A stretch of 60,926 nucleotides of DNA, the filler included. It is 4 parts of 4 records of this genome, joined end to end, with 100 filler letters (N's around TTAATTAATTAA, not from the genome) between each part and the next. Parts side by side here need not be neighbours in the genome. Positions count along the whole stretch, not along the records: positions 1 to 15,803 come from SRR20825019_783; positions 15,904 to 27,379 come from SRR20825019_784; positions 27,480 to 52,835 come from SRR20825019_785; positions 52,936 to 60,926 come from SRR20825019_786. One strand, 5' to 3'. Made by a program: the position numbers and the translations under genes. Shown piece by piece: positions 1 to 58,774 of the stretch (the first letter of the stretch is position 1; every line of letters starts with the position of its first letter). Below the pieces are notes generated by a model. It did not search any database and had not been told where the DNA came from. It saw only the letters and a list, made by a program, of their open reading frames with translations.

Positions 1-546
1 ACACTGCCCAGCTCCGCTCCTCGCCGGGGATGCGGGCAACGACCGGTCCGCAAGCCGCGCCGGTTCGTCGGCGCCGTCACGGCAGTGCGGCCCGGCGGGC
101 CCGCGGCCCTCGCCCGGCGCCCTCAACTGATCCAACCGGGTTCGGGTGACTTGAGTCAGCCACGACCACCGGCACCTCGGAACGAGTCGGAATCCGCGTA
201 TCCGGTTCGGCGCTTGCGCGGAAACCTTCGACCGGCGCTGTTGCGAGCCTGGGCGCGGCCGCCGCCCCGGGGGGGCCGCGGCCGGGTCGGGCGCCCGCGG
301 CGCCTGGGCTCCCGGGCCGGGCCCGGCCGCCCACTGGCCCGGTTGTCCGCGGCGAGCAGCCCGGCCGGCGGGCCCGGGCCTGGTCCGTGGGTGGCTGTGT
401 TGTTCCATCAAGAGACTCCAAGGAATAGGAAGGGTTGATGGTGATATCAATACGACACGTGTCTGCCGTGGTCAGTAGGCGTTGAGGTCGTTGTATTTGT
501 GTTACGTGGCTCGGGGGGTGCGGATCCTTCCAGGAAGTGAGTCGGC

Positions 547-2629
547 ATGGGCGTGTGGTGCAGTCGTCTGAACCCCATTCCGGTGGAGCGTATGCCAGCG
601 CGCTTTCAGATCCGCCGTAAGCCTCACACATTTGAGGAGACGTTTGATACGGCGTTCCATAAGGAGGAGCTGGAACGAGCAAGGCGCGCGTCCCAGTCGT
701 CTCTGGTGGACGCACGCAGGGAGGAGGAGCACAGTGAAGATGACGTCTCAGACGCTGTTGAGGCGGTGCTGTCTGACCGCCAGAGGAACCTGGTGAAGCT
801 TTTGTCACTACCGGATGCCTCGACGACTGCCAAGACGGCGGACGTGGTACGTGCGCTACAACACAACATCTGTTGGTATGGACTGACGGGATTGTTAACT
901 GTGAACAGGAGGGCAACACACTCCTCCACTATGCCGCGGACTGTGGTGCATCTAACTGTGCGACCGTCCTGGTGCTGCAGGGCGCTGACGTCAATGCGCG
1001 CAACTCTGCGATGCTGACGCCGCTCCATATGGCCATCATGAGCAAACACCGGGACCTCGTCAGAAGGCAAGTGGTTGCACGTGCGTGCCCTGCCTGGTGT
1101 GTGACTGTGGTGAACCAGATTCGTGTCGGAGTTTCGAGCCGACCTGAACGCAGCGGAGCAGGAAGGATGGACGGCGCTGCACCTCTGTGCACACAATGGC
1201 GACGTCGACAACATTGAACTGATGCTCAAGCACGGTGCAGACGCTAATGTTGTGAACAAGGTGGCCTAGATTTCATCCATGCAGCCCCCCGCCCCAGCGA
1301 GCTAATGCCTTGTGCAGAACGATGACACTCCTTATGATATTGCCATGGCAGTGTGTGCATACCTCAAGAAAGCCAGGCACCGCAACCACTTCATGAAGGA
1401 GTACGAGGAGAGACACGGCGAGCGCCACCGTGCGGCCCAGGACCTGCTGTGGGAGGTGAAGCGAGCCTCTATGGAGAATGAGACATCGCAACACAAGGTC
1501 AGAAAGGTGGATTCGATTCGGAATTTATTCAAAGGAAGCAAGGACAAGGATGCCTCGCCGTCACGATCGTACGACCTCGCCGCTTGACGGACGCCGCTAT
1601 TCTAACGCTAGTATGCAGAGGCTGGAGGCACAGGCGTGCGATATCCGTCACGATCCCTGAGCATCCGAATCTCCGCCGTGGATCATGGCGCTCCCGAGGG
1701 ATGACAACCGGGGCGCGGTCGGACACGATAGTCGAGGAGAGCTTTCTTTCCTTGGGCGACGGGAAGGACAAGCAGGAGGACGGAGCCCCCGCCAGAGGAG
1801 ATGGGGAAGGTATGGACGAAGCAGATACCGATGAATGCGGTGATGAGGACGGGCCCGCAAATGGGAACGGAGGCAGTGATGACTCTGATGACTGTGAAAG
1901 CGTGAAGCCGTATATGTCTCGTCAGAGCACCGTCGATGGTAGGCCCGGCCCATTGCATAATTGAGGCATGCTCTTATTTCCCCTGGAACCAGAACCGATA
2001 GTGCCGAGGAAAGAGAGTCAAGTGGACCTTGAATTGGAAGAAATAGGACTGGATTTAGAAAGGTCTGTTGTCACGGCCTGACAGGAACGAAGTTTATATA
2101 ATCTCGTCTGCCTAGGGGAGCTCACCTCTTCGAGCCGCTCACGCCTGGGTCACCGCGAGAAGCGATGGACATGCTGAGGGCAACGCCTGATCTTAAGTAT
2201 CACCTCCCAAAGCCTCCGTCACCAGAGCCGTCCCCCCAGGAGAAACACGATGCCTCCCTCGCTATATTCGAAGATACCCAGTAAGAGTGAAGATGTTAGT
2301 ATGTGATCTCGACTCATCTGTCGTATAGTGTTCGATTCACACCCGTCAAGGCGCCGAGAGCCAAGGCCATTCGGAGTGTTCGCGATGCCAGCGAGACACC
2401 AGAGCTCTTCCGCGCTGTTGTGAAGATTGGAGAGCACGACCGCTCGGAACAGAATATCGGCGGGGATGGATCCCCTCACCGCAAGGGAGTCAGTCCGCCA
2501 GTGCTAAGAAATAAGCCACAGGAGCTAGGCAAGGTGCCGCACCCCGAGGGGGATCCCCACCGAGGTCCCAAGGTGCGCCTTGTATACCCTCAGGACGGGG
2601 AAGAGGAGAACGTGGAGTCGCAGGTGTGA
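547..2629 (+). CDS. Ankyrin-repeat protein with low-complexity C-terminus (multi-exon)
   Basis: Spliced ankyrin motifs GNTLLHYAA, LTPLHMAI, GWTALHLCA, DTPYDIA; introns 847-909, 1067-1118 (GC-AG), 1261-1317, 1569-1618; 3' exons approximate. Confidence 0.8.
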
Positions 2630-2795
2630 ATTTACTCGTTCGAGCCAAGGTTGGACACGGATTTTGCATCAATCAGCAGTGTCGATGGTTAACACCATCA
2701 CACGTACTGCCGCCGCGCCAGAGTGCCAGTGCCGCGCTTATTCTGAGCGGGCCGGTCCACTAGATAAGACCAATTGCCGGTGACTGTGGTACCTG

Positions 2796-4452
2796 TTATT
2801 GCTTCCACATTGCCCATATAATGAACAGCGAGCCGAGACTGGTGGCTGCGAATGTAGCCAAATACACGAACCTATGGTGGCCCAGCTGCCCCACCGGCAT
2901 CTGAAACGCGTCAGATTATGCCCTCTTCCCTCTGTGTAACATTCACCTTGGTGACGATGGGTACAGTCCCAGGACTCAAGTCTAGCACATGCATCGGACT
3001 GGTCAATGCTGATGCCCAATCGAGCCTGGCGTAGATTTTCTTCCTGGTCAATGCGATGTCGCTGTCGCCGCACTCGATGAATGTCCTGGGACGTGGGATG
3101 GACACAGGGCTGCAATGGTCGTTAGATGATTTGATTGAAGCTTTTGTTAGCGTTACCTGTACATGTCTGTGGAGCTGGGTGACTGGTATCGAAGATGGAT
3201 GGGGATGGTGATCTTGTATTCATCACGACCTTGCTCCAATGGCACGCGTGCTACCGCAATGTATGATAGTGATTTGTATGACGGCCGTTCCAGTTCGATA
3301 GGAGCAAAGCTCTCTATGGCGGGGCCTTGACCAAAACGGAAGTTCTCATCCACTTGGTACATGTCTATATAGAGCTCGGGTGGTACGTATTCCACAAGGA
3401 CCAGTTGGCATCCCTGGATCTATTGAGAAGATTCAGAACACCCCGATAAAATAACCTTGCCATGCGTACATTGACCGCATCAACGCCGCTAAGCGAAATT
3501 GAACTCGTGAGCTCCCGGTGCTGCCCGGACGAATCCAGCGTGCGATGAATCCTCGTCGTCACCAGAGCGGGAGGACTGCCGTTCCCAACACTTGTGGACT
3601 CAACCGAAGGCTCTGAGATTCCCAAGCACTCGGCCACGTGGGTTACGTTTTCAACTCTGAAGAGCACTTCGACACCGCACTGGTGCAGCCTCACATCAGC
3701 AACCTTCCCAAACAGAAATCCAGTGGGTCACTCACACTGCCCATCCTGCACTCGACGTTCAGGATGAATGGCGCCCTTGCCGTGGTTCCTGCACACGACT
3801 GCACATTGGAGCGAGCTGCATCGACCCAGCCATCTTGCAGAAGATGTGGGGGCGACGTGGAGCAACGAAACGACTGTGCTCTATCAGGGCCGACGCCCAG
3901 AACTGAAGCGCCGCGCCCCAGCCCGTCCATGCATTCGCGAGTGCATTCCATCCCAACGGCTGACTGGAGGGATGCGCTCATTCCCCAGCCCGCTGCACCG
4001 CTAGTTGACTCTGTTAGAGTAGATCGTCACGCATCCATCGCCCCACTTACCTCGAAGTACAAAGCTGCCATTCCTGCGGTGTGAACAAAAGACTTTGCAC
4101 ATATGCCTCCGCGTGACTCCGCCCAGATGCACTCCATACGGCCTGAGCACATGGTGAGGGAAAGTTTTATGGTCAAGGCTGTCTACGCACCTCATCATTG
4201 CCGTCACCTCGATGCACTAGAGAGATAAAGATGAAGTCATCTTCCCCAGCAGGAACCTGTTCAAGATTAGTACTAACAAGTAATACTGTGCAACGAAACT
4301 ACCTCTTCCCATCGGTGTTTGAAAACCACGGCACCGCGCTGAGACTCCTCGGTTGAACTCGTCCAAACCTGCACGTTTGCACCACCGTCCTCACTACCAC
4401 TGGCGACGGCGGCCAATACGAATATGAACCATATCAACTGAAGGTTATTCAT
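2796..4452 (-). CDS. PIGX: PIG-X/PBN1 family GPI mannosyltransferase I subunit (multi-exon)
   Basis: N-terminal signal peptide MNNLQLIWFIFVLAAVA; exon VPPELYIDMYQV..IELERP..IPIHLRYQSP; C-terminal MPVG plus TM helix FVYLATFAATSLGSLFIIWAMW. Confidence 0.72.
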
Positions 4453-4559
4453 GGCGCTTGCACAAACTCTTAATTGTTGTGAAACGTCGCCAGATAAATG
4501 AGCTTGCCCGCGGGCAAAGGCGGAATGATGGTGAGGAGACAGTGCACGGCCGCAGTTGC

Positions 4560-4985
4560 TGAGGGACGGGCGGCGGCGATGGGGGTCACAGATGAGGGCT
4601 GTCTCGCCGGGCGGCCGGGCCCGATCCGACAGACGCGGGAACCAACCGCCTCCGCCGCCCACGGTCCGGCCGGTGGCCCCGGCGCGGCGCTCCCAAGAGT
4701 GGGGACTTGCGCGGGCGGGGCCTCGGCCCCCGCAGCCGGCCGGCGGCCCTCGCCGTGCCGTCACCCAAGCGAACTTGACCCAGTCTCTCCATGGCGCCGC
4801 GGGCCGCATGCCTGGCGAGCGCCGGAGCACGAAGCCACCGGGCCGCCGGCGGCGGGCGTGGCCGGGGGGGCGGCGCCGCGGGCCGGGCGCGCGGCCGGTC
4901 ACGGTGGGGGCGGCGGGCGCGCGGGCCGGGCGGCCGGCCGGGGCGCCCGGCGGGGCCCGGACGGCCGCCGCCCCGGGTCCAGACC
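4560..4985. promoter_or_regulatory. GC-rich island between divergent PIG-X and MYB
   Basis: Near-pure G/C core ~4840-4980; lies between two 5' ends. Confidence 0.6.
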
Positions 4986-5615
4986 AGCGCACTAGATCGA
5001 TCCGAAACAATCGAAGCAGGAGGGTCAAAAAAGCTCGTTATAATGGACTCTATTCGTTATATCTAAGATGACATCCTGAATATCTCGATATAATCACGAG
5101 GGTGGGCCAACGAACAGCCGCGTCAAATTTGCAGCAACTGCAGAACTATCAATAGAACCACTCGAAATGGTGAGTGACTTCTCAGTTTGGTAAAACCCTC
5201 CTTCAGTGTAAGTTGTACACTCCGCGTCATGGTTGGGGCTGCGTTGCTTCCCGTCTTCAAAACCGATGGCAGCACCGTGACTCAGCCCTCAGTGTGGGCT
5301 GGCCCATTAGGGCTCGTAACAATGATCCCCTCGTGGCCTGTCTATGGTGTGCCCACGATGGCCTGCACTCACAGTATGATGACACCCGGCCTGCCCACCT
5401 AACATACGCCTGATGACAGCTGGCCGTGCGTGGGTGAGCCACTTTCAAACCATAGCTCCGTTCAGCCCCAACCCCCCCGCACCACCGCACCACCGCCCTC
5501 TAATTCCCATTCGGCCACTTCTTGAGTAAATAAACGTTGTGGATGCCCTCATGGTTAGCATTGTCTTTGACCAATTGTTTTGTCGGTGCGAGCTTATTCC
5601 TTATATTTTTTGGAA

Positions 5616-6989
5616 ATGACTTCAGTAGCTAAGGGAAAGAAGAGAAACCCGAGCCAGCGTTGGACTCCTGAGGAGGACGAAAAGTTGCGCAACGCCGTTC
5701 TTATGCATGACTCGAAGAACTGGAAACAGATTGCACAGCACTTCACCAACCGCACTGATATCCAGTGCCTTCAAAGGTGGTATGAGGTGCTTCGCCCTGA
5801 CCTTGTCAAGGGCCCATGGACCGAGGATGAAGACCGTCTTCTCATTGAACTAGTCCAGGAGCACGGTTGCAAGAAGTGGAGCTTGGTTGGCAGCAAGATC
5901 ACTGGTCGCAGTGGAAAGCAGTGCCGTGAGCGTTGGTGCAACCAGCTCGACCCCAATATTAAGCGCACACCTTGGACTGATGACGAAGAGCACTTCCTCA
6001 TTGAGTGCCACTTGCGCTTTGGAAGCCAGTGGTCTCAAATCGCAAAGTACCTGCCGGGTCGCCCGGATAACAGCATCAAAAATCACTGGAACTCAGTGGT
6101 GAAGAAGAAAATGCAGGCTATGGAAGCTGAGGGGAGGATGCCACCCCGTATCGAGGGCGAGCTGGAGCCCTTTGAGGACACCACCCTGGTAAAGAATGCC
6201 CCCGCTCCCCCCTCACCCCTCGCACTTGGTTCGGTTGGAAGCAAGCGCGAAAGGGACTTTGGGGGCGCCGTGAACTTGCTGGAGACGCCCAAAAAGACAG
6301 GGCGGGTCAGCATTGACCATTCCTCGCCGAACTCTCTGGCCAACCGCGTGCCCAAGAAGTTCCAGTTGACTATTGACACTGCAATGTGCACCGGTGACAG
6401 CCATGATGCTAACTTTGAGGCATTCTTGAAGGAGCTGGAGATGGGTGGTATCTACTATGACGAGGTGTCGCGCCCCGAGGCCGTGTCTCCCTTCCCGGTT
6501 GCATACAGGAATTTGTTTGGCACCAATGGGCAGGAGCAGCGCAAGAACCACAGTCCATTCTTGACTTTGGACCTCACCGCTGAGGAGGTGAACGCGGGTC
6601 TTGGCGCGGAGGTACAGCCTGAGCATATCCAGTGCTCGGAAGGCAAGCAATCCAACAGCGTGCCAAGCTTCCCTGATTTGCACTTTGAAGGATCGCCCAT
6701 GCCCGGGAGCTACATGTATGACGGTGACAAGAAAGCGGATAAGAGCCAGCTGCCCTCGCTCCCTGAACTGTCTCGCCAGCTCTCATCGGTTGCGTTGCCG
6801 ACAGGCCGTTACCCGCCGCCGCGCCATGCCCTCTACTATGGCGGAGGCGCCCTCTCCCTCATGTCCCCCCTTCCGGGAACTGCGAGCCCTGGCATATTCT
6901 ATTTCAACAGCAGTGCCCCCTTGTCTGCGTCACCTAGATTCCAGTGGCCAGTCATGACCGATTCTCCTCGTATGGTCAGGTGTTTGTAG
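5616..6989 (+). CDS. R1R2R3 (3R) c-Myb-like transcription factor
   Basis: Three Myb repeats (RWTPEEDEKL; KGPWTEDEDRLL..GKQCRERW; PWTDDEE..PGRPDNSIKNHWNS); start taken at ATG 5616; extra terminal exons possible. Confidence 0.92.
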   Translation: MTSVAKGKKRNPSQRWTPEEDEKLRNAVLMHDSKNWKQIAQHFTNRTDIQCLQRWYEVLRPDLVKGPWTEDEDRLLIELVQEHGCKKWSLVGSKITGRSGKQCRERWCNQLDPNIKRTPWTDDEEHFLIECHLRFGSQWSQIAKYLPGRPDNSIKNHWNSVVKKKMQAMEAEGRMPPRIEGELEPFEDTTLVKNAPAPPSPLALGSVGSKRERDFGGAVNLLETPKKTGRVSIDHSSPNSLANRVPKKFQLTIDTAMCTGDSHDANFEAFLKELEMGGIYYDEVSRPEAVSPFPVAYRNLFGTNGQEQRKNHSPFLTLDLTAEEVNAGLGAEVQPEHIQCSEGKQSNSVPSFPDLHFEGSPMPGSYMYDGDKKADKSQLPSLPELSRQLSSVALPTGRYPPPRHALYYGGGALSLMSPLPGTASPGIFYFNSSAPLSASPRFQWPVMTDSPRMVRCL

Positions 6990-7172
6990 AATTTAATGGC
7001 GCGCTGTTGTTACCATGCTGATCGGAGAGAGGTGGCAGTCCTTGGTGTTAAGACCAAACATGCCGCGAAGTTGACTTCTACGGTCGACGTCTTCTGATAC
7101 ATAAAATGTACAATCTATCCTACCTAAGCCCCTCTCGCTTATCAGTAGCCGAATGATTCGCGGTACTTGTTA

Positions 7173-8928
7173 TTATCTCTCAGCATGTGCTGTGCCATGC
7201 TGTTCAGTCAGTTGAAAGTAAGCACACACACCCCGGATACGTACAGGATAGTCATTCAGCCTCCTCCGATTCTCATTCTCGAAGGAAGTGTTCCAGTCAT
7301 CTTCGTCAATGGGCTGTGCATCACCGTATCTCAACCGAGAATTATTGATTTCCCGTGTGGACTCGTCAGTGAAATCCTCGTTGTAGGGAGATGTATCCGC
7401 CATTCCGTCTACATATTGTGACTTCCAGCTGCCTCCTACCAATCGGAACTTGTCCTCAGCGCGGTACCGTCCGCTGCTATGGCCGCTCCGATAATCGCGG
7501 GTGCTGTCGCGATGACGGGGCAACGAGTACTTCTGATCATCGGCGGCAGAGTTCCGCGGGAGCTGGGATGCCCTAGGGTTGTACGGGGGAGTGTACATCC
7601 TTGAGCCCTTGCTCCGCTTCTCTGCAAGGCGTTCCTTGCGGCTCTCTTCTTCAACAAAGTCCTGGAAGAATTCGAGGGGCTTCCGATCGCCCTCCTGAAG
7701 AAACGGTTTTGGCTCAGGAGTGCCATCGATCCCAGATCTACAAACATCGAGTCAGGACACGGGACAACTAGAGGATATCAGAAGTGACGTACTGCGATTC
7801 CCATTTCTCTAGGTTCGTGTCCACCCCAGTATCTGTGATCTTGCCATCGCCGACACCGGCGGCCTGCGCTTTGGTTTCGGCGGCTTCGTCATTTTGGGGG
7901 GGAGGGCGGAATTCCTGGAAAGCCTTGGCGAATGTCCGCGACACAAACGGGCACCCGCTGACAGGGAAGTGCTTGACAGTTTTAGAAAGGTGTCGGGACT
8001 TCTTCATGCCTGAAGTAGAGAATATAAGCAAGGTCGCCGCAACCACCTACATCTGCCGCTCACCAATCGGATATTCACGATCCGGTCCCAACACCTTTCT
8101 GTTGGAAAAGGACAGCTCGAGAGGATGGCACTCCGGGTACCGATTGATCTCGTACTTGCCAGGCCCAGGGTACGGTGGAGGCGGCGAGGGTGTTGGCAGA
8201 GCTACACCAGAACATTATCACTCGGCCTCCGCCCCGGTCAACAAGAATACATACGTGCTCGTGGCTTCTGTACTGGGGCATTGATGACAGGATTGGGCGC
8301 CGTCACCATGTACTTGCCACCACCAGATATAACCCTGTCGAGGCCGTCGCCAAACGGCGGCTGGTCCGTCGTCCTCCCCCACTGCGTATGGTGGTACTTC
8401 CCAGGCGCTGGATTGTCCGGGTTTGGGTTATAATGCCAACAGTTCGGGGAGTCCTCTGCACAGGCCGTCAGTCTTCATCCATTTCATCCCGCCCTGAACA
8501 TGCAGGTAACGTACCGGAGCCTCGCGGGGCTAGGTTGGCACTGCATGGGGCCGAGTGGCGCACTGGGACGTCGTAGTCTCCAGGCGCGGGGTTGCTCTCC
8601 TTCTCAGTATCTACACGGAGCGATGAGAGCACTTCCAACCACCGGCCGGATTCTTACGTGCGACAGTGTAGCCCGGGCGGATGATGGGGGCTGAGCTGCC
8701 GAGGTCGTGGGTCTGAGGACGGGTGGGGTCAGAATAGATAACAAGACAAAGAGGAAGCCAGGATACCTTGTACCGACTGGGGTCGTAGGTAGCGGGGCCC
8801 GGGGACTCGACGTTGGTAACCTGCAGGCACAGCCAGTGAGCACGGGGGGGACAGTTCAGCAGCACCAACCCACCCAACCCGAACGGCCCAGCCCTCCACG
8901 GGGAATGGACACCATCGTGGTACTGCAT
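7173..8928 (-). CDS. Sperm-tail PG-rich (STPG/SHIPPO/ODF3-like) repeat protein (multi-exon)
   Basis: Repeats SPGPATYDP, NPAPGDYDV, NPAPGKYHH, YPGPGKYEI recovered across short GT-AG introns; ends approximate. Confidence 0.65.
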
Positions 8929-11460: not shown

Positions 11461-11565
11461 TGCAGCATAAGAGTGGTAAAGACCTATCACACTTTTGGCG
11501 GTTTGAGGAACTTTAGGGGCCAACCGAGGCCACTTGCAGATGTGTCTGCACAGACACTTTACAAC

Positions 11566-49136: not shown

Positions 49137-50358
49137 ATGGAGAATACAGATCTTACCGTGGACGTTTCTGCTCCAGAGGATAACGTTGACGAAGAAGAGC
49201 CCGCCAACGTTATCGTAGTATCAGATGACTCAGAATCAGAAGCATCTGATGATGGCACAGAGAACATGCTGGAGAATATTCCCCCTTCCCCTGTTGTCAA
49301 CCTTACAAACGATTTAAGTGCAAAGTCACTACATCAGCACAGTCCCATTACTCAGGATATTGACTTCGACATAGACGAAATTATTGCTGAGGCAACTCGG
49401 GAGACATCATCATTTCATGGAAGCAGGAGTAAACGAGACATAAAGGAGGTTAAGAGTGAGAAGAAGATAGAAGAAGATATAAGCCCAGCCACCTGCCGCA
49501 TAGCGATAAAATGGTTGCGCTTAATTATGCCCGGGTTTAAGTTGCCACTTGATGAGGAAATATTGGAAGAAAAACTTAGGCGATTAGAACTGAAGAGAAA
49601 GAGTAAGTCTGATCATTTCAAGATTTTTCCAGCTTTCCCCCTGACTAATGACTACTTATTAGAGAGATCAGCAAAACCGAAAAAGACTACCCCAATCCTG
49701 GCAGACCTGAACCAGATCGACGAACAGGTAAAGAAGTTTGACGTGCTGCTGAAGAAGCATAAGAAGAGAATAGGTGGTACCAGCAACCACAAGAATATGA
49801 GCGGTTTGTTCTTTTATCCCTTCTAACTATTTGACTGCGGATTCTAACACTCCTCCAGAGCTTCTTCTTCAGGTGGATTTGCTGCGGTCTCGGGTAGATC
49901 AGCACACAGCCCAATACAATGTTTCCGATCGAATATCAAGGCTGATACGGGAGATGAAGTCCTTACTTGTTTTACTGGAGCAACTTTATACGGTTCAGCT
50001 AAGAATGGACAAGGAAAACAACATCTATGTAAACAAGGGGCCCTGGACAGCACCTGGTAGGTCCTTCCGTGAGTGCGAAGCATAGCAATTCCACCAACAT
50101 GTTTCGTCAGGTATTCAAAACAAATTGGTGCCGGTGGTGGGGTACTTGAGCCCTTCATCACCTGTCGTTGCCCAATCAAAGCGATACAGGAAATCACCAA
50201 TGTTCTACGAAAAACTGAAGCCGGCGAAGCAGGTCACTACTCACATATACTACGAACCCAACGAAAAGAAGAAGGCCAAGAAAAGACGGGAGCGGACCTT
50301 CAATACAAGCAACGTCTCCACAATTGCAATGGCCAAATCACCGGATATGTTAACATAA
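49137..50358 (+). CDS. Hypothetical protein, acidic N-terminus and basic C-terminus (multi-exon)
   Basis: Three same-strand ORFs joinable by short introns (~49804-49858, ~50056-50110). Confidence 0.6.
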
Positions 50359-50369
50359 TATATGTTCAA

Positions 50370-51968
50370 TCAATCTGCTAGATCCACTTCGGCAACATGC
50401 GTTGTTTCAGCCATGTAATACTCATGGAAACTGACATTGCCTTCAAGCAAACCGAGTGTACCGATATTGACCATCGTAGCAATTGTGCGCCGCTTGGGTT
50501 CTAACACACCAGACCGGCGCAGCTCAGCTTGAACAGCCATGCGGGCCTCCATCTCAAACGGGCTCCCAGAACCAACTTCTCTATACCGGAAATCCCCATA
50601 CAGAGTCGTCTGACAGCAGTGTCCTGATGAGAAAGAATGAAAGAAGTCTGCAAGAGTTGAAAAGAAATCAATGACTGCTGGGACTCCCTCGATATTGTAT
50701 GGCGCTCCTGTTTCATCATCCCCTCCAGCAACCTCAAACATAGGCTCTATGTACAACACACGCGCCCGATGGCCAGTTGTTGGCAGCTGCCAAGACGCTG
50801 AGCTAACATCTCTGTTTGGTCGGTCCAAATCACATCCCAGATGATTTCCGCCAACTAGAGGAATGAGATCTACGGTTCGCTTAGAAAGGAGGCCGCCTTT
50901 TCTTATCACGATAATCGGAAAAGGTGGATCCTGATAAGACCCCTTCATGATGTCGCTTTGAAAGACACGTAGCGTTTCGTCTCCGCACCCAACGGATGCC
51001 ACTGTTACAAGGCTCTCAACAGCCTCTGGCCCCATGAGTCCACAAATAAGTACACTTAAGTGTTGCGCGTAGCCACCGCCGAGCGATTTTCCCACTATTC
51101 GCGCTGCCTTCACGTTGTTTTCAGCAAGAAATTTGCGAAGAATGGGCCACGTCGCATAGACACAGCTCATGCCAATAGTCATATTGAGATCACTCACGAA
51201 GCTTCTGAGTCCATGAGTGGCCTTGAGCTTCATAGCGGTTCCCCTACATACTATAATTGGGTTTTGCAACCCCTGAACATCAAACAAGAGGACAATGTAG
51301 GCGCCCCCACCATATATAACTTTTTTTACGAACCACATCCCGGAATAGAGACGCACAACAAGACCTATGGCAGGTTCTCTCTCCACAAATCTTGAGGAAA
51401 GGAACTCCGAGTCACATATCAATTGTGCAGTGTCGTCTAGAGGGGATAATCGAGAGGTTCCCACAACTCTCTCCCTATGAGTAAGGATCACGTGCACCCG
51501 CTCGCATAGCCCTCTGAAACCTTTTCCACAACTCCGTGCACGATCATAGTTTGGAATTCGTTGGAGACGCTCTGCAGTGTCTAGAGCTATTAGACTTCCA
51601 TGGAGGCTGTCCAAGCCTCTCAGGTCAACTTGTTCAAGGGGAGTCTGCCCGCTCGCTTTCAAAAGATCATCGACAAACACTTCCGACATGAAAACATGCA
51701 ACCGCCGAATGGTGGCGATACTCAGAGATGAGCTGACGTAAGGTTCGCTTCCAGCTCCTTTAAACAAACTCACGTAATTGATACCAAGACTGGCACAAGC
51801 CCTCTCCATACGTCCTGGCGAGAGAGAGTCCAGTTTGCGCAGGAACGATACGTACGACATATGCTGTCGCGCGGCATGCCGATCGCTGTCATCTTGCTCA
51901 AAACACTTGTTCGCTGCCTCTTTTTCCCCTATGGTGATACCCAGTGACTCTGAAGAGCCTTCTGACAT
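50370..51968 (-). CDS. Alpha/beta hydrolase, lipase class 3-like, intronless
   Basis: IIVCRGT, nucleophile elbow GKSLGG, candidate Asp VDLIPLVGG, candidate His SSGHC. Confidence 0.75.
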   Translation of the reverse strand: MSEGSSESLGITIGEKEAANKCFEQDDSDRHAARQHMSYVSFLRKLDSLSPGRMERACASLGINYVSLFKGAGSEPYVSSSLSIATIRRLHVFMSEVFVDDLLKASGQTPLEQVDLRGLDSLHGSLIALDTAERLQRIPNYDRARSCGKGFRGLCERVHVILTHRERVVGTSRLSPLDDTAQLICDSEFLSSRFVEREPAIGLVVRLYSGMWFVKKVIYGGGAYIVLLFDVQGLQNPIIVCRGTAMKLKATHGLRSFVSDLNMTIGMSCVYATWPILRKFLAENNVKAARIVGKSLGGGYAQHLSVLICGLMGPEAVESLVTVASVGCGDETLRVFQSDIMKGSYQDPPFPIIVIRKGGLLSKRTVDLIPLVGGNHLGCDLDRPNRDVSSASWQLPTTGHRARVLYIEPMFEVAGGDDETGAPYNIEGVPAVIDFFSTLADFFHSFSSGHCCQTTLYGDFRYREVGSGSPFEMEARMAVQAELRRSGVLEPKRRTIATMVNIGTLGLLEGNVSFHEYYMAETTHVAEVDLAD

Positions 51969-52089
51969 CACGTCAGTGTTTAGGCCCGCCGCGGGACCGG
52001 GAGAATGGCTTCAGGAACGAGCGGCGGCGATCGCAGACTGACATGACTGCAAAGTTGAAGTGTTATCTTATACTAGTCAACAGCGCAGG

Positions 52090-52835
52090 GGCTGACTCGC
52101 CCAGGCCGCTGAGTCGGCATGGCCGGCGGGCCTGTCATCGCCGAGTCGGGCGGCGGCGGGGGCGGCGGGGGCCGCGCCGGGGGGGGCGCCGGCCCGGCCC
52201 CGGCGGCCCCGCGTCATCCGACCGTGTGGCCGGCCGCCGTCCGGTCCGGTCAGTTCAGTTTGCGCGAGCTCCCGGGGCCGTGATCGGTTCCCGTAAAGTT
52301 GAAGGTTACGGGACGACCGAGCACTCATCGGGCTACGACGCGGATTCACAGTCTCCGTACTGACGGTAAATTGGGAGGTCCTCTGAACGGCCCAGTGCCG
52401 GCGTCGCGTCTTCGAATCGGCCCCGGCGGGTCGGCGTGCTCATAGGGGGCGCGGCTCGCCGGGCTCAGGGTGGGCGCCGGCCCGGGCCGGCGGGGCGGCG
52501 GGCCCTGCTGGGTCTCAACTTGGCGATTCCGGTGGAATTGTCGGACGACCACCCACCACCCCCCGCGGGTGGCATCCGGCCAAGCCTGCCCGTCCGCGTC
52601 CCGTGTCATGGCCGGCCCGGCGGGCGCGGCCGGCCGACCCGGCTAGCCGGGCTGGAGTGGCCCGCTGTTGCTTGGCCCCGGCTGGCCGCCACCGCTGCCC
52701 AGTGCCGCCCGGGCAGGATGCAGTGACCCGACCGGAACCGAATTGAGAGTCCGGTGGCCCACCCGTCGTGTGGGTGCCGTCTGGCCCGGCGAGCGGAACT
52801 GATAAGCCTGCGCTGCCCGGTGCACCGCCACCCGA
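52090..52835. promoter_or_regulatory. GC-rich island upstream of lipase, running to the contig end
   Basis: GC-rich DNA 5' of the lipase gene. Confidence 0.55.
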
Positions 52836-52935: not shown

Positions 52936-53034
52936 GGGGAGATGATAGTCAATAATTGGCGCCATCCTAGAGCCGATGATCAGTGCAAGGGCCACTCACT
53001 CGTGCAACCCTTCCCACCCCGCACGCACTCAGTC

Positions 53035-54134
53035 ATGCAAACGCTCTGTCTGATACCTTACGCGCAGTCACCCACAAGCGCAGACGTCGCGCGACTTGTG
53101 CCGAACGCTACGGCCGCGAGACGGAGTGATAAGTACGGAAGGGTAAGTTGGCTTGAATGTGCGGCACGGGTAGAAATCTGGAGGTCCGCGGTGTATCACC
53201 GAGAGTGGGGGTGGTGCCGTGCATGGGAAGGCCGGGTCTCGGCACCGTCGATGGATTGGTCAGTCTCAGACGGGTCCGACTGCCGGGGGGCGCGCCGGGG
53301 ATAGTTTGAGGTTTCGACCGGCCCGGCGGGCGGGCGCAGCGGCGGTTGCTGGAGAAGGCATTGACACGTGTCGCCGCAGACACCACTGCACCTTGCCTCG
53401 GAGCTGACAGAAGATGGGGACAGTGTGCGGTACATGGTGGGCATTACCGGGGTGGACCCCGGCGTGAGGGATAACTATGGCACGACGCCGTTGCACAACG
53501 CAGCGCTGAACGCCAATGGCGGCGGCTGCCGAGCGATCGCGCTGCTGGCTGGCGCAGGGGCGGATGTGAATGTCGAGGCGGACACTGGGAACACCCCGCT
53601 GTTCATCGCAATACAGTGTACGTTGTTGGGCTAAGCCGCTTGCGGGCAGGGCGTGATGCTGATCGGGGACAACACCAGATGGCCAGGCTCCGGCAGTCGC
53701 GGCATTACTGGACGCCGGTGCGCTCAGAACGCGTCGCCATGCCCGGCGCGGCGTCACCCCGGCGCAGTTTGCCACCGAGCGGGGACGGGATGACATCGCC
53801 GAAGTACTAAGACGTAAGTGCAATAGATGCTCAGGGCGCGAGGAACTTTGGGGGGTTGGGTTAGTGTTAGGGTTAGGTTAGATGTGATCTCGGGAGGTGT
53901 GGCTGTGTGGCTGTCTGAACGGACAATGCAGGTCACATCCCTGCCCCGTGCATCACGGCACTGGTGCTGGCCCGGAGATTGGAGGTGCGGTCTCAGTCCG
54001 AGGAGAGGGAGCTGGATGATCGAGCCGGAACACTGGTGATCCTTCCAGCAGATATTCTCGAGACCGTGGCTGCCGTGTTTGCCCGCGAGGCCGGCGGGAG
54101 GCTTGTTAAGAAGGGTGGAACGAACACCTTGTAA
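53035..54134 (+). CDS. Ankyrin-repeat protein (multi-exon)
   Basis: DKYGR|TPLHLA across intron 53142-53379, GTTPLHNAA, GADVN..GNTPLFIA, GVTPAQFA; ends approximate. Confidence 0.8.
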
Positions 54135-54296
54135 CCTCGGTGAGGCTACGATCTACGGAGCTTACATCCATACATGTGAAAGCAGACATCGTTGCTCCCT
54201 GACTTCAGCCATCTGAATGGCTAGTGCATGACCAAAAAATCCGCAAAAACAAGAAACAAATCCCTTGATGATATTTACAAAGGGACTCGCGGTATA

Positions 54297-57113
54297 CTAA
54301 TAAGGAACATCCTTGCCCAAGATGGCGGCGGCATACTGAAGCGTTATAATGTCGCGTTTCTTGGACGATTCGTCGGTGACCGGAGCAATATTGGCAATCA
54401 TGGCGGATGGAGAGCTAGTGGACAAGGCCGGGTACAGAATGCGGGCGAGCTGGCTCTCTCTGATCTCCTGGGTAGGAACAGCCTTGGGGTTGCGACCGAT
54501 CTTGACAATCATGTTCTTGAGAGCGAAGAGCCCCTGGCGAATGATGGTGCCCTGGCCGTCAATCTTGGCATTGCCAGATGACGTGTCGCTCATAAGCTCC
54601 AGTCCCGCCAGATCTACCAGTGTGATCTGTTTTCTGGGGTTCTCCTGCTTGGCGCTGCTGAACAATCCAATCCTGAACACACGGTGAGAGCGAGAGCTGC
54701 CCTGGGGGTTGCCCTCTGTGATAGCCACCTCGCGCATCCTGCCTCCACGGCGATATAGCCGGAGGGTCTCTGCCGGGTCGGTGACAGTTACCCATGGGTC
54801 ATGACGGACGCCCCTCTTGTTCACAATCTTCTTGGATCCAACGATCTTGAGCACCTTATTGACCTCAAATACATCGAGTGTCTTGAGAATCGTGTTGCCT
54901 GCCTTGGTCACCCTGTTACGCCCACGGCTGTCCTGCTCGGGGTGGAGCAAATCGCGGAGGACAGTGTTCTGTGAGGTGCTGGTGGGTGTGTCGCCATATA
55001 TCTCAAAGTCCATCACCTTGATGACCCAGCCGGACTGGGTGGACTTGAATTGGAACAACGTATCCATGATTCGTGGGATCAACCCGGGGTCGGTGGTGTC
55101 GCCCTCCATGGTGTAGGTCTTCCCCGTTCCAGTATAGCCGAAACAGAAGATCGTTCCCCAGCTGACCTCTCTCGGTTTCTGGAGCATCACATCCAAAACC
55201 TTGCCATCATTAGTCACGACCTCCTCAAACACTTCCTCGTTCGAAGGTCCGCGGTCTAGCGAATCCGTGAAATCCGACGGCGAAAACACTCCGGTGTAGC
55301 TCATCGACTCATCGGGGAACACCTCCTGCTTGGTCGACACAGCAAGATCCACCGATGTCTCAGGATACGTCACCGTGCACTGGTTCTCCTCGTCATCACA
55401 GCTGAGGTTGTACTCGTCGCTCGGTGACTCGTGCGCAGGCAGGATGGGCCGCACGCGGACGTACGTGTCCAGCCTCTCATTCTTGCCGCGCTTTTCCATC
55501 CTCACCTCATCCTTAGCCTCCGCCCGCAGGTGGACCACTCGGGGTGCCTTCTTCTTCACGGGCTTCTCATCAGCGGGGCGAATGTTCAATGCCTCCTGGG
55601 CATACTTCAGTGTGTCCGTGGTGAACTTCAGATGCTCCTCATCCGGTGAGACCGTTGCAATCATGACGGTCTGCATTTCAGAGGGATGGCCGCGGAACGA
55701 GCTGTCCAGGGCACGCGTCAGGGTGCTATCCCGAAGATTCGGCTTGTTACCCGCGGCCAGCGCGCTGATAACACGGGCCAGCGCCTCCAGGCTGGAGTTG
55801 ATCGCCAGGCCTTGGTTCTTGGCAACGCTATTCTTGCCAGATGTGGACAGCTCCTTCCCTGCAAGGTCAACCAGGGTCAACGTCCCCGTGCGGGTGGCGC
55901 CGGAGTTCGAGGTGATCGCGTACTTGACCTCGATAATCATATGGGAGCGCGAGCTCTGCTTGTTCATCGCAGTGGCTTCAGTCACCCGGTTGGCCGACCA
56001 AGTCTTGATCAAGTCCCCGACTTTCTGCTGTGCATACCTCAGTCGCTCACCTGCGGACTTAGAATCCAGGTCAGGCAAAATCCTTGCCAGATCAAGGGGG
56101 ATGAAGGGGTCCTGCAAGCCGGGCAGCTTGTTTCCGTTACCGTCGTACGACACAAGCTTAGGGGTGGTGACATCGTCACTGGTGAAGAACTTAATGTCCG
56201 CATTCTGCGTCTCAGCCTTCTTGTTCAGCCTGAACCCGTCCATATTCACATTCGCCGAGCTCTTGCCGTTGTTGTACAACTGATACGGCAGAACCTGGAT
56301 ATCTGTCGAAGCCGCCTCCTTACTCTTCTCATATAGATCAACAAAGAGATCCCCGAGTGCCATCTGCAGAACGCCGAACTCATTGCCTGACTCGGCATCA
56401 CGCGACCTGCCCGTGCCCTCCATAGTGAACGTCTTTCCGGAGCCGGACTGCCCATACACAAACACGGTTCCTTTGAAGCCGTCCTCGGTCGCGACCCGGT
56501 TTACAATGTGACGAACGCCGCTCTCAGCGTAGGCTTGCTTGTTGTTGGCGGATGTGCCGAGAACGTTGCTAAAGCCATCATAGGCAGTGGGCGCCCCAGA
56601 CTTGTTATACACAATAGCCGCGAAGCCTGCTCCGTGAGACTTTCCCCTGACGCACTCGGTCTCGCCGCTCTTAGGCGGGCCCCGCACTCGGACCACGGAG
56701 AGTACAGGCTGGTTCTCAGAGAACACATCGCGGTCCTCAAGGGCGGGCTGCTCCTCCCCAAGCGTCTCGTCATCATCGATGTCGGACGGAAGCACTTTGT
56801 CGTCGACAGCAACACCGCCCAGTTGGCCGGCCTCCTCCTTGACGGCAGGCGCTGGAACTTCATGGTCCCCGGTCACGTCAGCGTCGTGTTGCGGTGGAGG
56901 CGGGTCGTCCTCAACTCCATCCTCCAGCCTTCTCAGCTCCTCTCGGCGCTTCTTCAGATTTTCGAGCTCGAGCTCCTTGGCCTGGATGGCCTGAGCCAGT
57001 TTTTGGTTCTTTCTCGCCAGGTCACTGCGGCCTCCTGCCACCAGCCTGTCGGCTGCTAAGGCGGTCCCTACGACTGCCAGCAGGAACAGGACCAGTGCCA
57101 CCCTCGATCCCAT
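54297..57113 (-). CDS. Kinesin-like protein with two tandem motor domains and an apparent signal peptide, intronless
   Basis: Motor 1 (aa ~135-511): VRVR, GQSGSGKT, NKQSSRSH, LVDLAGKE, INSSL, RDSTLTRAL. Motor 2 (aa ~546-933): VRVRP, GYTGTGKT, SSRSH, LVDLAGLE, RESQLARIL. Confidence 0.92.
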   Translation of the reverse strand: MGSRVALVLFLLAVVGTALAADRLVAGGRSDLARKNQKLAQAIQAKELELENLKKRREELRRLEDGVEDDPPPPQHDADVTGDHEVPAPAVKEEAGQLGGVAVDDKVLPSDIDDDETLGEEQPALEDRDVFSENQPVLSVVRVRGPPKSGETECVRGKSHGAGFAAIVYNKSGAPTAYDGFSNVLGTSANNKQAYAESGVRHIVNRVATEDGFKGTVFVYGQSGSGKTFTMEGTGRSRDAESGNEFGVLQMALGDLFVDLYEKSKEAASTDIQVLPYQLYNNGKSSANVNMDGFRLNKKAETQNADIKFFTSDDVTTPKLVSYDGNGNKLPGLQDPFIPLDLARILPDLDSKSAGERLRYAQQKVGDLIKTWSANRVTEATAMNKQSSRSHMIIEVKYAITSNSGATRTGTLTLVDLAGKELSTSGKNSVAKNQGLAINSSLEALARVISALAAGNKPNLRDSTLTRALDSSFRGHPSEMQTVMIATVSPDEEHLKFTTDTLKYAQEALNIRPADEKPVKKKAPRVVHLRAEAKDEVRMEKRGKNERLDTYVRVRPILPAHESPSDEYNLSCDDEENQCTVTYPETSVDLAVSTKQEVFPDESMSYTGVFSPSDFTDSLDRGPSNEEVFEEVVTNDGKVLDVMLQKPREVSWGTIFCFGYTGTGKTYTMEGDTTDPGLIPRIMDTLFQFKSTQSGWVIKVMDFEIYGDTPTSTSQNTVLRDLLHPEQDSRGRNRVTKAGNTILKTLDVFEVNKVLKIVGSKKIVNKRGVRHDPWVTVTDPAETLRLYRRGGRMREVAITEGNPQGSSRSHRVFRIGLFSSAKQENPRKQITLVDLAGLELMSDTSSGNAKIDGQGTIIRQGLFALKNMIVKIGRNPKAVPTQEIRESQLARILYPALSTSSPSAMIANIAPVTDESSKKRDIITLQYAAAILGKDVPY

Positions 57114-57154
57114 GGTGTTACCGATACAGTTCGGAAGACCTGCCTAGTCTGGTA

Positions 57155-57163
57155 CTTTATATA
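57155..57163 (-). promoter_or_regulatory. Candidate TATA box for the kinesin gene
   Basis: TATATAAAG on the minus strand ~45 bp upstream of ATG 57113, at the island edge. Confidence 0.5.
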
Positions 57164-57179
57164 CGAGTGAGCAGCCCTC

Positions 57180-57700
57180 GCTCCCCGCGTCCGAGCGGCC
57201 AGGCCGGGCACACCCGCCTCGGAGCCACCGCCGACACGGCCGGGCCGTGCCGGGGCCGGGCCAGGCGGGCCGGGGCGGGGGTGACGAGGGACCGGACCGC
57301 CGACGGGCCCCCGCCACAGTGCGCACGGCACTGATGAGGCCCTCGGACTCGTCGGAGATGACGGGGAACCGTAGCCGGTCACGGGGGTATGACCTACACC
57401 GGGATCGCCCAACCCAAATATATCGGTATATCGAGACCATGAGATGCCGCCAGTCCGCGGGGCTGTGCGGCCGGCGCGCCGGGCCGGGCGCCCGCCGGGG
57501 CGCCCCCCCCGGCGCCCCCCCGCCGCCGGCGGCCCGGCCGGCCCGCCGGCCGGGCGGCCGGGGGTCACCTCCGTCCACGCGCTCTCCCGGGACCGGACTG
57601 CAGGACTGCACTCGGTGGCGCCCGGGCCCGGCCACGGCGCCCGCGCGGGGGCGCCCGGTCGTGACGGTCCCCCGCCGTACCGGACCAGCGGCTCACGCCA
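57180..57700. promoter_or_regulatory. GC-rich island between divergent kinesin and Sec14 genes
   Basis: Pure G/C run ~57465-57565; TATA-like elements on both flanks. Confidence 0.62.
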
Positions 57701-57751
57701 CGGTGCACTTATATCAACTCAGTGGCTTCAGTAGCAGCGAGGTGGCACCCG

Positions 57752-58774
57752 ATGAACTGCTTCCGTAAAACGCACCGGCGCTCACCGTCATCCGACGACC
57801 TACCGGCCGTGGCGCCCACATATGATGGGGACCCCAGGTTCACCCTAAGTGCGGAGGAGACGAGGTGGTGCGTCGAGCTAAGAGAGGCGCTGCGAGCGGC
57901 GGGTGTTGCAGAGCCCCGACCGGACTTGATGTTGGCCCAGTTTGCCATCATTGGGAAGGGGAACGTGCGGAAGGCAGTCAAGCGTGTGAAGAACTACCGG
58001 AAAGTGATCTTGGGCGAATACGGTTATTCTTTGGAGAAGGCCCGAGCTAATGGACACTTCATGAATGCGAAGTGGCCTGGTATGGTCTTAGCGGCCGCGC
58101 CACTGTCCACTGGTGAGCCAGTGGTTGCTGTGGATGTTCTTCCGTACCGCCCGTCGCAGCTGGAGTGGGACACCGAGTGGCCAAGACTGATTGTTGAGTT
58201 TGTGATGATTATGGATGCGGTGAACTGTGACCTTGAGTGCATCCGGAAGGGTGGCTCCATGGTGATTCACATGGAGGGCATGGGATGGCACAACTTCAAC
58301 TTGAAGATGGAGGAGAAGGCCGCTCCGCTCTATCAGGAGGCTTACCCTTGCAGGTTCCATTCCTTCCCGCTGGTCGACGCAGGCCCAATCGCCACGATCA
58401 TAATGCGGCTCGTAAGAGCGTTTCTGAAAAAAAAGATTGCTGACCGTATGATAATCTGTAAGAAATCGGAGCTGTATTCATCCAAGTATGGCTACACGAG
58501 AGAAGGGCTCCCTCCGGTCCTTGGAGGGACATATGACCGGCCGCTTGACGAGTACATTTCAGACCTGCTCCAGCGACGGGCCGAGGCGGAAAGCAGGGTG
58601 AGGGTGTCTCCCCCGAGCGAAGATGGCTCCGCCGTAGCGCCACGTGATGCCACGCCTCCGGAAGCGAGGCAGTCTTTCTTTGGCCAGTTTTGTGGCTGCG
58701 GGAGCGGTACCGAGGTGGGACCTCTGAAGAGCGATTCCGATCCAATCCACGCCGATCATCCAAGCGCGGACTGA
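57752..58774 (+). CDS. CRAL-TRIO/Sec14 lipid-binding protein, intronless
   Basis: DLMLAQF..KAVKRVKNY (CRAL-TRIO N), EGMGWHNF, QEAYPCRF, FLKKKIADRM, LPPVLGGT. Confidence 0.85.
   Translation: MNCFRKTHRRSPSSDDLPAVAPTYDGDPRFTLSAEETRWCVELREALRAAGVAEPRPDLMLAQFAIIGKGNVRKAVKRVKNYRKVILGEYGYSLEKARANGHFMNAKWPGMVLAAAPLSTGEPVVAVDVLPYRPSQLEWDTEWPRLIVEFVMIMDAVNCDLECIRKGGSMVIHMEGMGWHNFNLKMEEKAAPLYQEAYPCRFHSFPLVDAGPIATIIMRLVRAFLKKKIADRMIICKKSELYSSKYGYTREGLPPVLGGTYDRPLDEYISDLLQRRAEAESRVRVSPPSEDGSAVAPRDATPPEARQSFFGQFCGCGSGTEVGPLKSDSDPIHADHPSAD

Follow-up and report, generated by a model that had tools for sequence, protein, structure and literature searches.

What are the blocks of very GC-rich DNA that recur between the genes of the eukaryotic contigs described here, and how are they related to the direction in which these genes are read? 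The window, i.e. the whole stretch of 60,926 nucleotides that was analysed, consists of four contigs (positions 1-15803, 15904-27379, 27480-52835, and 52936-60926; SRR20825019_783 to SRR20825019_786), which are joined by filler (six runs of N with TTAATTAATTAA between them). Contigs 1, 3, and 4 are eukaryotic. They comprise 49.07 kb of compact sequence with genes interrupted by introns, and the genome-level statements made below rest on these 49 kb and approximately 24 genes. An earlier interpretation made from the DNA alone (hereafter, the sequence-only reading) had proposed that gene orientation alternates almost strictly and that the GC islands act as bidirectional, CpG-island-like promoters. 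The interpretation favoured here, to which we assign a probability of about 0.7, is that the GC-rich spacers lie 5' of genes, between outward-facing core promoters of the TATA type, in a compact genome composed of convergent gene pairs.

The islands were called by a 500-bp GC profile and a two-state GC segmentation (hidden Markov model, HMM). This yielded 14 islands of 208-1105 bp, which account for 7.07 of the 49.07 kb and whose centres are spaced by 2.8-5.3 kb. The segmentation recovered an island at each of the 13 places named in the sequence-only reading and added one more, at 59257-59513. Taken as merged units, the nine complete islands located between divergent genes display a GC content of 70.5-84% versus 49-56% in the surrounding eukaryotic sequence; the individual HMM segments contain 73-87% GC, except for one 39-bp fragment at 95%. 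The edges of the islands are sharp. The mean GC content of 24 flanks is 0.77-0.82 in the final 200 bp of the island, drops to 0.43 in the 25 bp directly beyond the edge, and then stays flat at ~0.51 out to +600 bp; the definition of the edge biases the first outside bin towards low values and leaves the flatness beyond it unaffected. Two weaker segments at 53207-53789 (68-72% GC), which overlap ankyrin coding sequence, and a 33-bp segment at 60894-60926, which is the poly-G end of a contig, were not counted as islands. The bacterial contig 2 contains no true island, and the two-state segmentation marked only a few short, weak GC segments there.

Homopolymer runs of C or G, 23-28 nt in length, are present at three contig ends (15779-15803, 27480-27502, and 60899-60926) and are probably a sequencing artefact. 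The island at 27480 opens with such a run of 23 C and is, therefore, partly artefactual. Of the six eukaryotic contig ends, four are located in islands, which suggests that the assembly tends to break there. In a separate study, a marine metagenome run contains a 151-nt piece that is identical to positions 45614-45764, inside an island. This exact match from an independent study indicates that the island sequence is not peculiar to the present assembly.

Gene strands were assigned by Pfam matches for 17 genes and by the direction of splicing for the gene at 37372 (+), the ligase (-), the cyclophilin (+), and the small gene at 47751-48133 (-). Islands are present at all ten internal junctions that hold a gene 5' end (nine divergent and one tandem) and at none of the 11 convergent junctions (Fisher p = 2.8e-6). 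Accordingly, the highest 200-bp GC content is 0.765-0.915 at divergent and 0.525-0.645 at convergent junctions. Each of the nine complete divergent islands has a minus-strand gene on its left and a plus-strand gene on its right, with the strand of one partner being tentative in four of the nine cases, and each of the four islands truncated by a contig end has the 5' end of a gene on its intact side.

With our own gene calls, 20 of 21 junctions show a change of strand (binomial p = 1.0e-5 versus random orientation), including all 11 junctions of contig 3 (p = 4.9e-4), where the six consecutive units reported previously were confirmed. The count becomes 18 of 20 if the region 12496-13739 holds no gene, and 12 of 13 for junctions at which both neighbours have Pfam or splice evidence. 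Thus, within the 49 kb examined, the claim of near-strict alternation stands. The two outcomes that could be checked within the window also favoured the sequence-only reading: orientation is not random, and 3'-3' junctions are free of islands. The tandem pair formed by the Sec14 gene and the Arf-like gene (earlier named ARL3) is a true break in the alternation, yet an island lies between the two. The region 12500-15800, listed earlier as a further exception, is not clearly one; it may fit the pattern because the minus-strand kinase gene has an island of its own upstream.

A bidirectional promoter is commonly understood as the region between head-to-head genes whose 5' ends are <1 kb apart, with no gene in between. 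The ATG-to-ATG distances across the islands examined here are 508-1164 bp; they are below 1000 bp in six of the nine divergent pairs (773 bp for TASP1 and cyclophilin) and 1031-1164 bp in the other three. The minus-side ATGs are located 9-141 bp from the island edge. Transcript 5' ends were placed on both sides of the island in none of the nine divergent pairs.

Logan contigs of three runs were compared with positions 32900-52800, and evidence resembling complementary DNA (cDNA) came from two public runs, X1 and X2. Contigs of these two runs contain many skips of 47-62 nt bounded by GT..AG or CT..AC, and their loose ends carry what we take to be letters of a template-switch oligo and of PCR primers. 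Because of these skips and oligo-like ends, the contigs were read as cDNA. The 14 short introns defined between 37700 and 48079 are 47-62 nt long, are all of the G/GT..AG type, and have a mean GC content of 44.8% (range 34-56%). In most of them, a branch-like word of the CTNA type occurs 8-30 nt upstream of the 3' end. One X1 contig (37882-39643) includes introns spliced on the plus strand as well as introns spliced on the minus strand, which shows that convergent transcripts overlap. Namely, the stop codons of the 37372 gene (38159, +) and the ligase gene (38193, -) are 34 bp apart and are both covered by one cDNA-like contig, so the 3' untranslated regions (UTRs) of these two genes must overlap. 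The bins containing islands showed little or no cover by the cDNA-like contigs; this was not counted, as a lack of cover is not evidence in itself and GC-rich DNA is, in addition, recovered poorly.

A different arrangement was seen downstream of the stop codon of the small gene. Here, a 767-nt CT..AC skip (46974-47740) joins an exon at 46863-46973, which starts 23 bp past the cyclophilin stop codon (46840), and an unspliced contig covers 47014-47670. This structure (46863-47740) may be an alternative 3' UTR, or a further transcript without an island of its own.

Four transcript 5' ends were placed, all of them outside the islands. The cDNA 5' end of MLH1, which carries template-switch-like letters, is at 36608, 170 bp outside the island edge, with a TATA-like TATATGTATATAG at 36633-36645. 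The small gene has cDNA 5' ends with template-switch-like letters at 48124 and 48133 (59-68 bp outside the edge) and TATTTG within 48149-48158. For the lipase-like gene, a plain contig end at 52036 is located 47 bp outside the edge, and TATAAG occurs at 52067-52072. The cyclophilin contig ends at ~45808, as placed from 57 letters beside the first joint, which is 40 bp outside the edge; the AT-rich, TATA-like TTAAAATTAAAG at 45771-45782 (+) occupies the island edge itself, 26-37 nt upstream. Each of the four placed 5' ends is, therefore, 23-37 nt downstream of a TATA-like element, which is the classical spacing between a TATA box and the start of transcription. TATA-like elements no more than 20 bp from an island edge were also found for the kinesin, Sec14, kinase, and Arf-like genes.

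Taken together, contigs 1, 3, and 4 would represent the compact, intron-bearing nuclear genome of a marine flagellate, in which genes are laid out as convergent pairs with abutting or overlapping 3' ends and the pairs are parted by non-coding spacers, which are 0.2-1.1 kb long and have a GC content of 70.5-84%. Each spacer would be bracketed by two outward-directed core promoters of the ordinary TATA type, each with its AT-rich or TATA-like element no further than ~140 bp from the island edge. Initiation would occur ~25-35 nt beyond this element, and the start codon would follow after a 5' UTR of 20-70 nt. The island would then constitute the upstream region, or the insulator, that two divergent promoters share, located outside the mature transcripts, while nearly all DNA beyond the spacers would be transcribed. 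This arrangement presumes that the mapped cDNA ends correspond to true transcription start sites and that the spacer is untranscribed. We infer that the spacer may serve in regulation or insulation instead of being a side effect of base composition.

Several observations weigh against this arrangement. Three to five gene strands are tentative among the ~24 genes of this 49-kb sample, and the intron candidates of two genes assigned to the plus strand favour the opposite strand (one plus versus four minus in 32207-33702; two plus versus four minus in 49137-49826). Plus-side ATGs are more variable in their distance from the island than minus-side ones, i.e. 77 bp for cyclophilin and up to 520-700 bp for some genes. 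The transcribed segment 47014-47670, between the stop codons of cyclophilin and the small gene, could hide a gene that has no island. No obvious TATA-like element was seen in the island flanks of TASP1, the 7173-8928 gene, the first ankyrin-repeat gene (ANK1), and the 37372 gene. TATA occurs 10 times in the 80-bp island flanks versus 5.0 expected (p = 0.03), a test that is biased because the island edge is itself defined by a rise in AT content; for TATAA[AG], the corresponding counts are 5 and 0.9, with the motif having been chosen post hoc. The runs X1 and X2 are not on record as RNA, their contigs cannot prove RNA starts, and the transcript evidence comes from 15 of 42 joints and 24 of 75 pieces. 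Two of the four placed 5' ends are plain contig ends. Template-switch-like ends were also found inside the taspase gene (43642, 44761, and 44433) and at 47348, at which the oligo end has a match in the genomic sequence; such ends mark the ends of cDNA and not necessarily capped starts.

A number of simple origins for the islands were considered and rejected. An origin from a repeat or transposon family was discarded since only short matches of the GGCC/CCGG low-complexity type (68-92% identity, in both orientations) are shared between islands and no transposon Pfam domain was found. An origin from tandem repeats was discarded as well, the tandem-repeat calls covering ~9% of island bases. Long open reading frames (ORFs) inside islands are to be expected because stop codons are rare there, and the island ORFs of at least 70 aa have no Pfam match, so that the islands were not considered coding. 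Searches for RNA genes in the window gave no Rfam and no tRNA match. A distinctive palindromic core is also missing: the inverted repeats detected are only those of self-complementary low complexity.

Two 8-mers are over-represented in the window. GACCGGAC occurs 15 times (2.6 expected), with 13 of the 15 copies being located in islands, and CAGTGCCG occurs 14 times (2.8 expected), exclusively in the eukaryotic contigs, with ~10 copies in islands or within 80 bp of them. None of 100 shuffles reached either count. Examples of these sites are found at 48228-48267, 45393-45400, and 57326-57333. Both words are candidate factor sites in some of the islands. In addition, TTTGGCGGGA, which we take to be an E2F-type site, is present at 36893-36902, within the AT-richer gap interrupting the island that precedes MLH1; a few related 8-mers occur elsewhere (31749 and 41873).

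The alternatives to the arrangement of paired TATA-type promoters differ in how they account for the composition of the islands. CpG islands are recognized by a length of at least 200 bp, a GC content above 50%, and a CpG observed/expected ratio (o/e) above 0.6. The islands described here, with 208-1105 bp and a CpG o/e of 0.92-1.17, qualify on these formal grounds, which fail to discriminate because the rest of the eukaryotic sequence nearly does so as well (GC 0.49-0.56, o/e 0.82-0.89). Their location between head-to-head genes also suits promoters of the vertebrate type, for which one would envisage dispersed, TATA-less initiation from an unmethylated island in a methylated, CpG-poor genome. 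However, there is no CpG-depleted bulk sequence with which the islands could contrast, and all four mapped 5' ends, as judged from contigs and not from cap-selected reads, are located beyond the island edges, with TATA-like elements upstream of them. No GC-skew switch of the R-loop type occurs across the islands, and their 10 G-quadruplex motifs are no excess over the 8.4 ± 2.8 expected from composition. We thus retain from the sequence-only reading the position of the islands between divergent genes and never between 3' ends, abandon the CpG-like nature of these promoters, and consider the vertebrate-type explanation very unlikely. Another possibility is that GC-biased gene conversion, acting at recombination hotspots located in promoters, has produced the islands as a side effect, a mechanism put forward for yeast, birds, and plants; their GC richness would then have no function of its own. 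This would suit the restriction of GC enrichment to promoter-side intergenic DNA and its lack at convergent junctions, an asymmetry that known promoter-centred hotspots share, and the strong GC3 (GC content at third codon positions) differences between contigs 3 (0.35-0.55) and 4 (0.63-0.82) would fit a regional GC bias. A preprint, by its title, reportedly links divergent and GC-rich intergenic regions in yeast. Conversion tracts, however, are hundreds of base pairs long, so that a gradient should be expected rather than a step, whereas GC content here falls from ~0.80 to ~0.5 within 25 bp and is flat from there to +600 bp. Neither is GC3 raised in the first 60-120 codons beside islands (for the first 60 codons, 0.38 in the ligase gene, 0.45 in the kinase gene, and 0.42 in the 49137 gene); in the MYB and kinase genes it climbs towards the 3' end. 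Being similar to hotspot peaks in the promoter-side position and different from them in lacking a flank gradient and a raised 5' GC3, the islands are, in our opinion, improbable products of gene conversion.

Sharp edges are what would be predicted if composition followed transcription status, the spacers being the sole untranscribed DNA, at a GC-rich mutational equilibrium. Transcribed DNA of every kind (exons, introns, UTRs, and overlapping 3' ends) would be kept at about 45-55% GC, either through mutation or repair associated with transcription or through selection acting on the RNA. The introns and the DNA at convergent junctions or overlaps (45-55% GC) are non-coding and yet unlike islands, and the island edges are only 40-170 bp away from the four mapped 5' ends. 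On the other hand, no consistent strand skews of the type expected from transcription-coupled mutation were detected, AT skew on the coding strand takes either sign, and the silence of the spacers is an assumption of the model. We know of no precedent for a composition set by transcription status and regard this explanation as somewhat improbable. A bolder form of the preferred arrangement would combine both elements in the one-module genome of an undescribed marine flagellate lineage, i.e. an untranscribed spacer of ~80% GC, a gene, a second gene converging on it with an overlap of the 3' ends of their mRNAs, and the next spacer, with TATA-type promoters and with composition determined by transcription rather than by coding status; it appears possible to us, although doubtful. 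The regular spacing of islands, and the fact that each spacer parts two promoters, might also suggest that they are, or double as, replication origins or chromatin/insulator boundaries. Replication origins of animals often coincide with GC-rich promoter regions, but a density of one origin every 3-5 kb would greatly exceed that of any genome known to us, and neither a distinctive inverted-repeat structure nor an excess of G-quadruplexes was found, so such a role seems quite unlikely. Finally, fragmented assembly, homopolymer contig ends, island-bound contig ends, a bacterial contig in the same bin, and GC3 variation between contigs could all point to an artefact of assembly, amplification chimeras, or binning. 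Against this are the colinearity of cDNA-like contigs with genes on both sides of islands, the independent metagenome pieces that match island plus flank, and the recurrence of the same architecture 14 times with unrelated sequences, and we give the artefact hardly any credence.

GC3 differs considerably between the eukaryotic contigs: contig 3 has the lowest values (~0.35-0.55), followed by contig 1 (0.45-0.75) and contig 4 (0.63-0.82) (compare, for example, 38647-41226 with 54300-57113). The island architecture is common to all three contigs despite these differences. The contrast could be due to regional heterogeneity within one genome or to the presence of related genomes in one bin.

The islands and genes identified in the eukaryotic contigs are listed in the table below.

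Table. GC islands and predicted genes in the three eukaryotic contigs of the window (o/e, observed/expected ratio; ORF, open reading frame).
Feature	Positions	Strand	Composition or evidence	Remarks
GC island	1-395		78.7% GC, CpG o/e 1.09	Cut by contig start; faces 5' end of ankyrin-repeat gene (+)
Ankyrin-repeat gene	547-2626 (approximate)	+	Pfam Ank 777-1214; intron candidates 4 (+) vs 1 (-)	ATG 547
PIG-X/PBN1 gene	2741-4452 (approximate)	-	Pfam PIG-X E=1e-14 at 3156-3419; intron candidates 0 (+) vs 7 (-)	
GC island	4544-4990		83.0% GC, highest 200-bp GC 0.90	Between PIG-X (-) and MYB (+)
3-repeat MYB gene	5616-6989	+	Pfam Myb_DNA-binding E=1.3e-50	
Unnamed gene	7173-8928	-, tentative	192-aa ORF 7176-7751 (-), positive codon score; intron candidates 0 (+) vs 3 (-)	
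GC island	9053-10157		74.7% GC	Longest, 1.1 kb; MORN start codon may lie in right end
MORN-repeat gene	10072-11516	+	Pfam MORN in four + ORFs; intron candidates 6 (+) vs 0 (-)	
Canopy (CNPY)/DUF3456 gene	11566-12147	-	Pfam DUF3456, 25.7 bits vs 21.1 cut-off	
GC island	12288-12495		82.2% GC	Shortest, 208 bp
Possible gene or none	12496-13739	+, if a gene	ORFs of at most 108 aa; no Pfam match; intron candidates 2 (+) vs 0 (-)	1.2 kb
Protein kinase gene	13737-14876	-	Pfam Pkinase E=1.1e-41	TATA-like TATTATATTC at 14965-14974
GC island	14975-15342		76.4% GC	Upstream of kinase gene
Partial GC island	27503-27870		GC-rich: 27480-27608 (including poly-C run 27480-27502) and 27832-27870	Contig start
RING-CH (RINGv) gene	28398-29414	+	Pfam RINGv E=2.2e-12	5' exons may begin nearer 27900
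ADAT1-like adenosine deaminase gene	29718-31381	-	Pfam A_deamin in two - ORFs	ATG 31381, 52 bp from island edge
GC island	31433-32044		78.8% GC	
Hypothetical gene	32207-33702	+, tentative	+ ORFs of 232 and 290 aa, weak codon score	Unspliced cDNA-like contig over 32900-34043
MLH1 gene	33827-36608	-	Pfam Mlh1_C, DNA_mis_repair, HATPase_c_3	ATG 36575
GC island	36778-37336		82.2% + 72.7% GC (two HMM segments), 70.5% merged	AT-richer gap 36868-36944
Unnamed gene, 208-235 aa	37372-38159	+	Three GT..AG skips in cDNA-like contigs; reading-frame walk	
ATP-dependent DNA ligase gene, 940 aa	38193-41226	-	Pfam DNA_ligase_A_N, A_M; three CT..AC skips	
GC island	41328-41746		80.2% GC	
LCMT-like gene	41926-43345	+	Pfam LCM E=5.5e-4, 20.3 bits vs 22.3 gathering cut-off; intron candidates 5 (+) vs 1 (-)	Weak family support
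Taspase (TASP1)/Asparaginase_2 gene	43647-45072	-	Pfam Asparaginase_2 E=4.8e-20	
GC island	45149-45768		82.1% GC	
Cyclophilin gene, 238 aa	45845-46840	+	Pfam Pro_isomerase E=2.3e-41; GT..AG skips	ATG 45845; five short introns
Small gene, 67 aa	47751-48133	-	Three CT..AC skips	ATG 48106
GC island	48192-48618		84.1% GC	
Hypothetical gene	49137-49826	+, tentative	229-aa ORF, top per-codon score among ORFs of at least 100 aa	
Lipase-like gene, 532 aa	50370-52036	-	546-aa ORF; G-x-S-x-G	ATG 51968
GC island	52083-52834		82.8% + 76.3% GC (two segments)	Cut by contig end
Ankyrin-repeat gene	53365-54133	+	Pfam Ank	5' boundary provisional; coding sequence itself 68-72% GC
Kinesin gene, 938 aa	54297-57113	-	Pfam Kinesin E=1.5e-91	Single exon; TATATAAAG at 57155-57164
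GC island	57171-57706		79.7% + 87.4% GC (two segments)	
Sec14/CRAL_TRIO gene	57752-58774	+	Pfam CRAL_TRIO	TTATAT at 57708-57715
GC island	59257-59513		73.5% GC	Between tandem + genes Sec14 and Arf-like; absent from earlier list
Arf-like GTPase gene	60245-60924	+	Pfam Arf in three + ORFs	At least 3 exons; cut by contig end

The gene names given in the sequence-only reading were retained where Pfam matches back them, and three of them were not. The 7173-8928 gene (STPG) and the 37372-38159 gene (NTF2-like) have no Pfam match, so that these names are unconfirmed, and the same is true for the lipase, whose best Pfam match is Lipase_3 with E=0.13. A full HMMER search with the 192-aa ORF at 7176-7751 (-) returned three matches, all of them to bacterial repeat proteins (PKD, MBG, and secretin), which were judged spurious. 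The gene model that gives the 940-aa ligase includes one intron that is predicted only (40058-40111). The length of cyclophilin, obtained by walking the reading frame over the introns, agrees with the 237-243 aa of its best database matches. In the kinesin, the motor domain is C-terminal (residues 563-940 of a 948-aa ORF). The long minus-strand ORF at 60190-60924, opposite the Arf exons, was rejected as spurious. A degenerate telomere-like repeat, GGTTAGGGTTA, is present in 2.5 copies at 53854-53881 in the region of the second ankyrin-repeat gene and is probably intronic.

Three approaches to gene prediction had little power on this DNA. The codon-usage model derived from ORFs with Pfam support performs weakly, given a GC3 close to 50% in contig 3. 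Base skews are unreliable as a predictor of strand here, and the spliced-ORF search with strict intron rules recovered multi-exon genes in part only.

The bacterial contig 2 carries long unbroken ORFs, which include those for MutS, HrcA, Ham1/RdgB, a radical-SAM/HemN-like protein, ParB, ParA, MnmG, and MnmE. A mnmE-mnmG-parA-parB cluster is of the type usually found near the chromosomal origin. The presence of this contig means that the source bin is a mixture of a bacterium and a eukaryote.

The eukaryote appears to belong to a poorly sampled lineage, since the 120 best matches of its kinesin among 5.8 billion clustered proteins share at most 33% identity with it (28-33% for the best ones). 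An Atlas search with the same protein revealed generic kinesin clusters only. The best matches of the cyclophilin were an EukProt/MMETSP entry (73% identity) and the choanoflagellate Salpingoeca rosetta (71%), followed by green algae. No relative was confirmed in metagenome contigs with ligase exon 1 or in prokaryote genome contigs with the kinesin, though patterns matched. A word-based protein search with the C-terminal exon of the ligase gave no match at near lengths and is uninformative about the gene. The gene set, with its MORN-repeat and Arf-like genes, does not contradict a flagellate.

Several known systems resemble the arrangement described here in part. Roughly a tenth of human genes occur in head-to-head pairs. 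The bidirectional promoters of mammals, which are often located in CpG islands, are alike in placing less than ~1 kb of GC-rich DNA between genes on opposite strands. Unlike in mammals, nearly every gene is paired here (18-20 of 20-21 junctions switch), and the spacers have 70.5-84% GC, step-like edges, no CpG contrast, and 5' ends that lie outside them, behind TATA-like elements. Yeast promoter regions are AT-rich and nucleosome-depleted, and the orientation of yeast genes is near random, whereas the shared region in our contigs is far GC-richer than the genes and orientation alternates almost strictly. The divergent promoters of budding yeast and of the sponge Amphimedon (PMC4773876) likewise combine short intergenic regions between two 5' ends with short 5' UTRs and tightly packed genes. 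In the divergent strand-switch regions of trypanosomatids (PMC1805754), transcription also proceeds both ways from an intergenic region of distinct composition; there, however, it enters long polycistronic clusters, while the units described here are single genes with a start of their own and cis-spliced introns, which end by converging on a neighbour. Amoebophrya, according to PMC7789003, is also a marine protist with a compact genome, short introns, and short intergenic regions, but its gene order is the opposite one: 98% of genes in Amoebophrya/dinoflagellate genomes are reported to occur in long co-oriented blocks. A description of near-strict alternation with GC-rich promoter spacers was not found in the full-text literature, with subscription journals and supplements being outside this search. 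Provisionally, the architecture may be regarded as an apparently undescribed variant of divergent/bidirectional promoter organization, 49 kb being too little for a genome-wide rule.

The arrangement represents an unusually regular way of building a compact genome, and its GC-rich spacers are the reverse of the AT-rich promoters that compact microbial genomes usually have. For a lineage without a close reference, the islands are of practical value in annotation, as they flag gene starts and strands, and they would also explain the breaks in the assembly. If genome-wide, the arrangement would bear on the insulation of neighbouring promoters, on the high GC content of divergent intergenic DNA, and on the share of base composition that is set by transcription. 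If the one-module genome were to prove true, it would constitute a joint rule of composition and orientation unreported for any eukaryote and would offer natural, insulated divergent promoter cassettes. Should the pattern hold genome-wide, it would mean that a eukaryote can place nearly all of its genes in convergent pairs that are served by GC-rich spacers.

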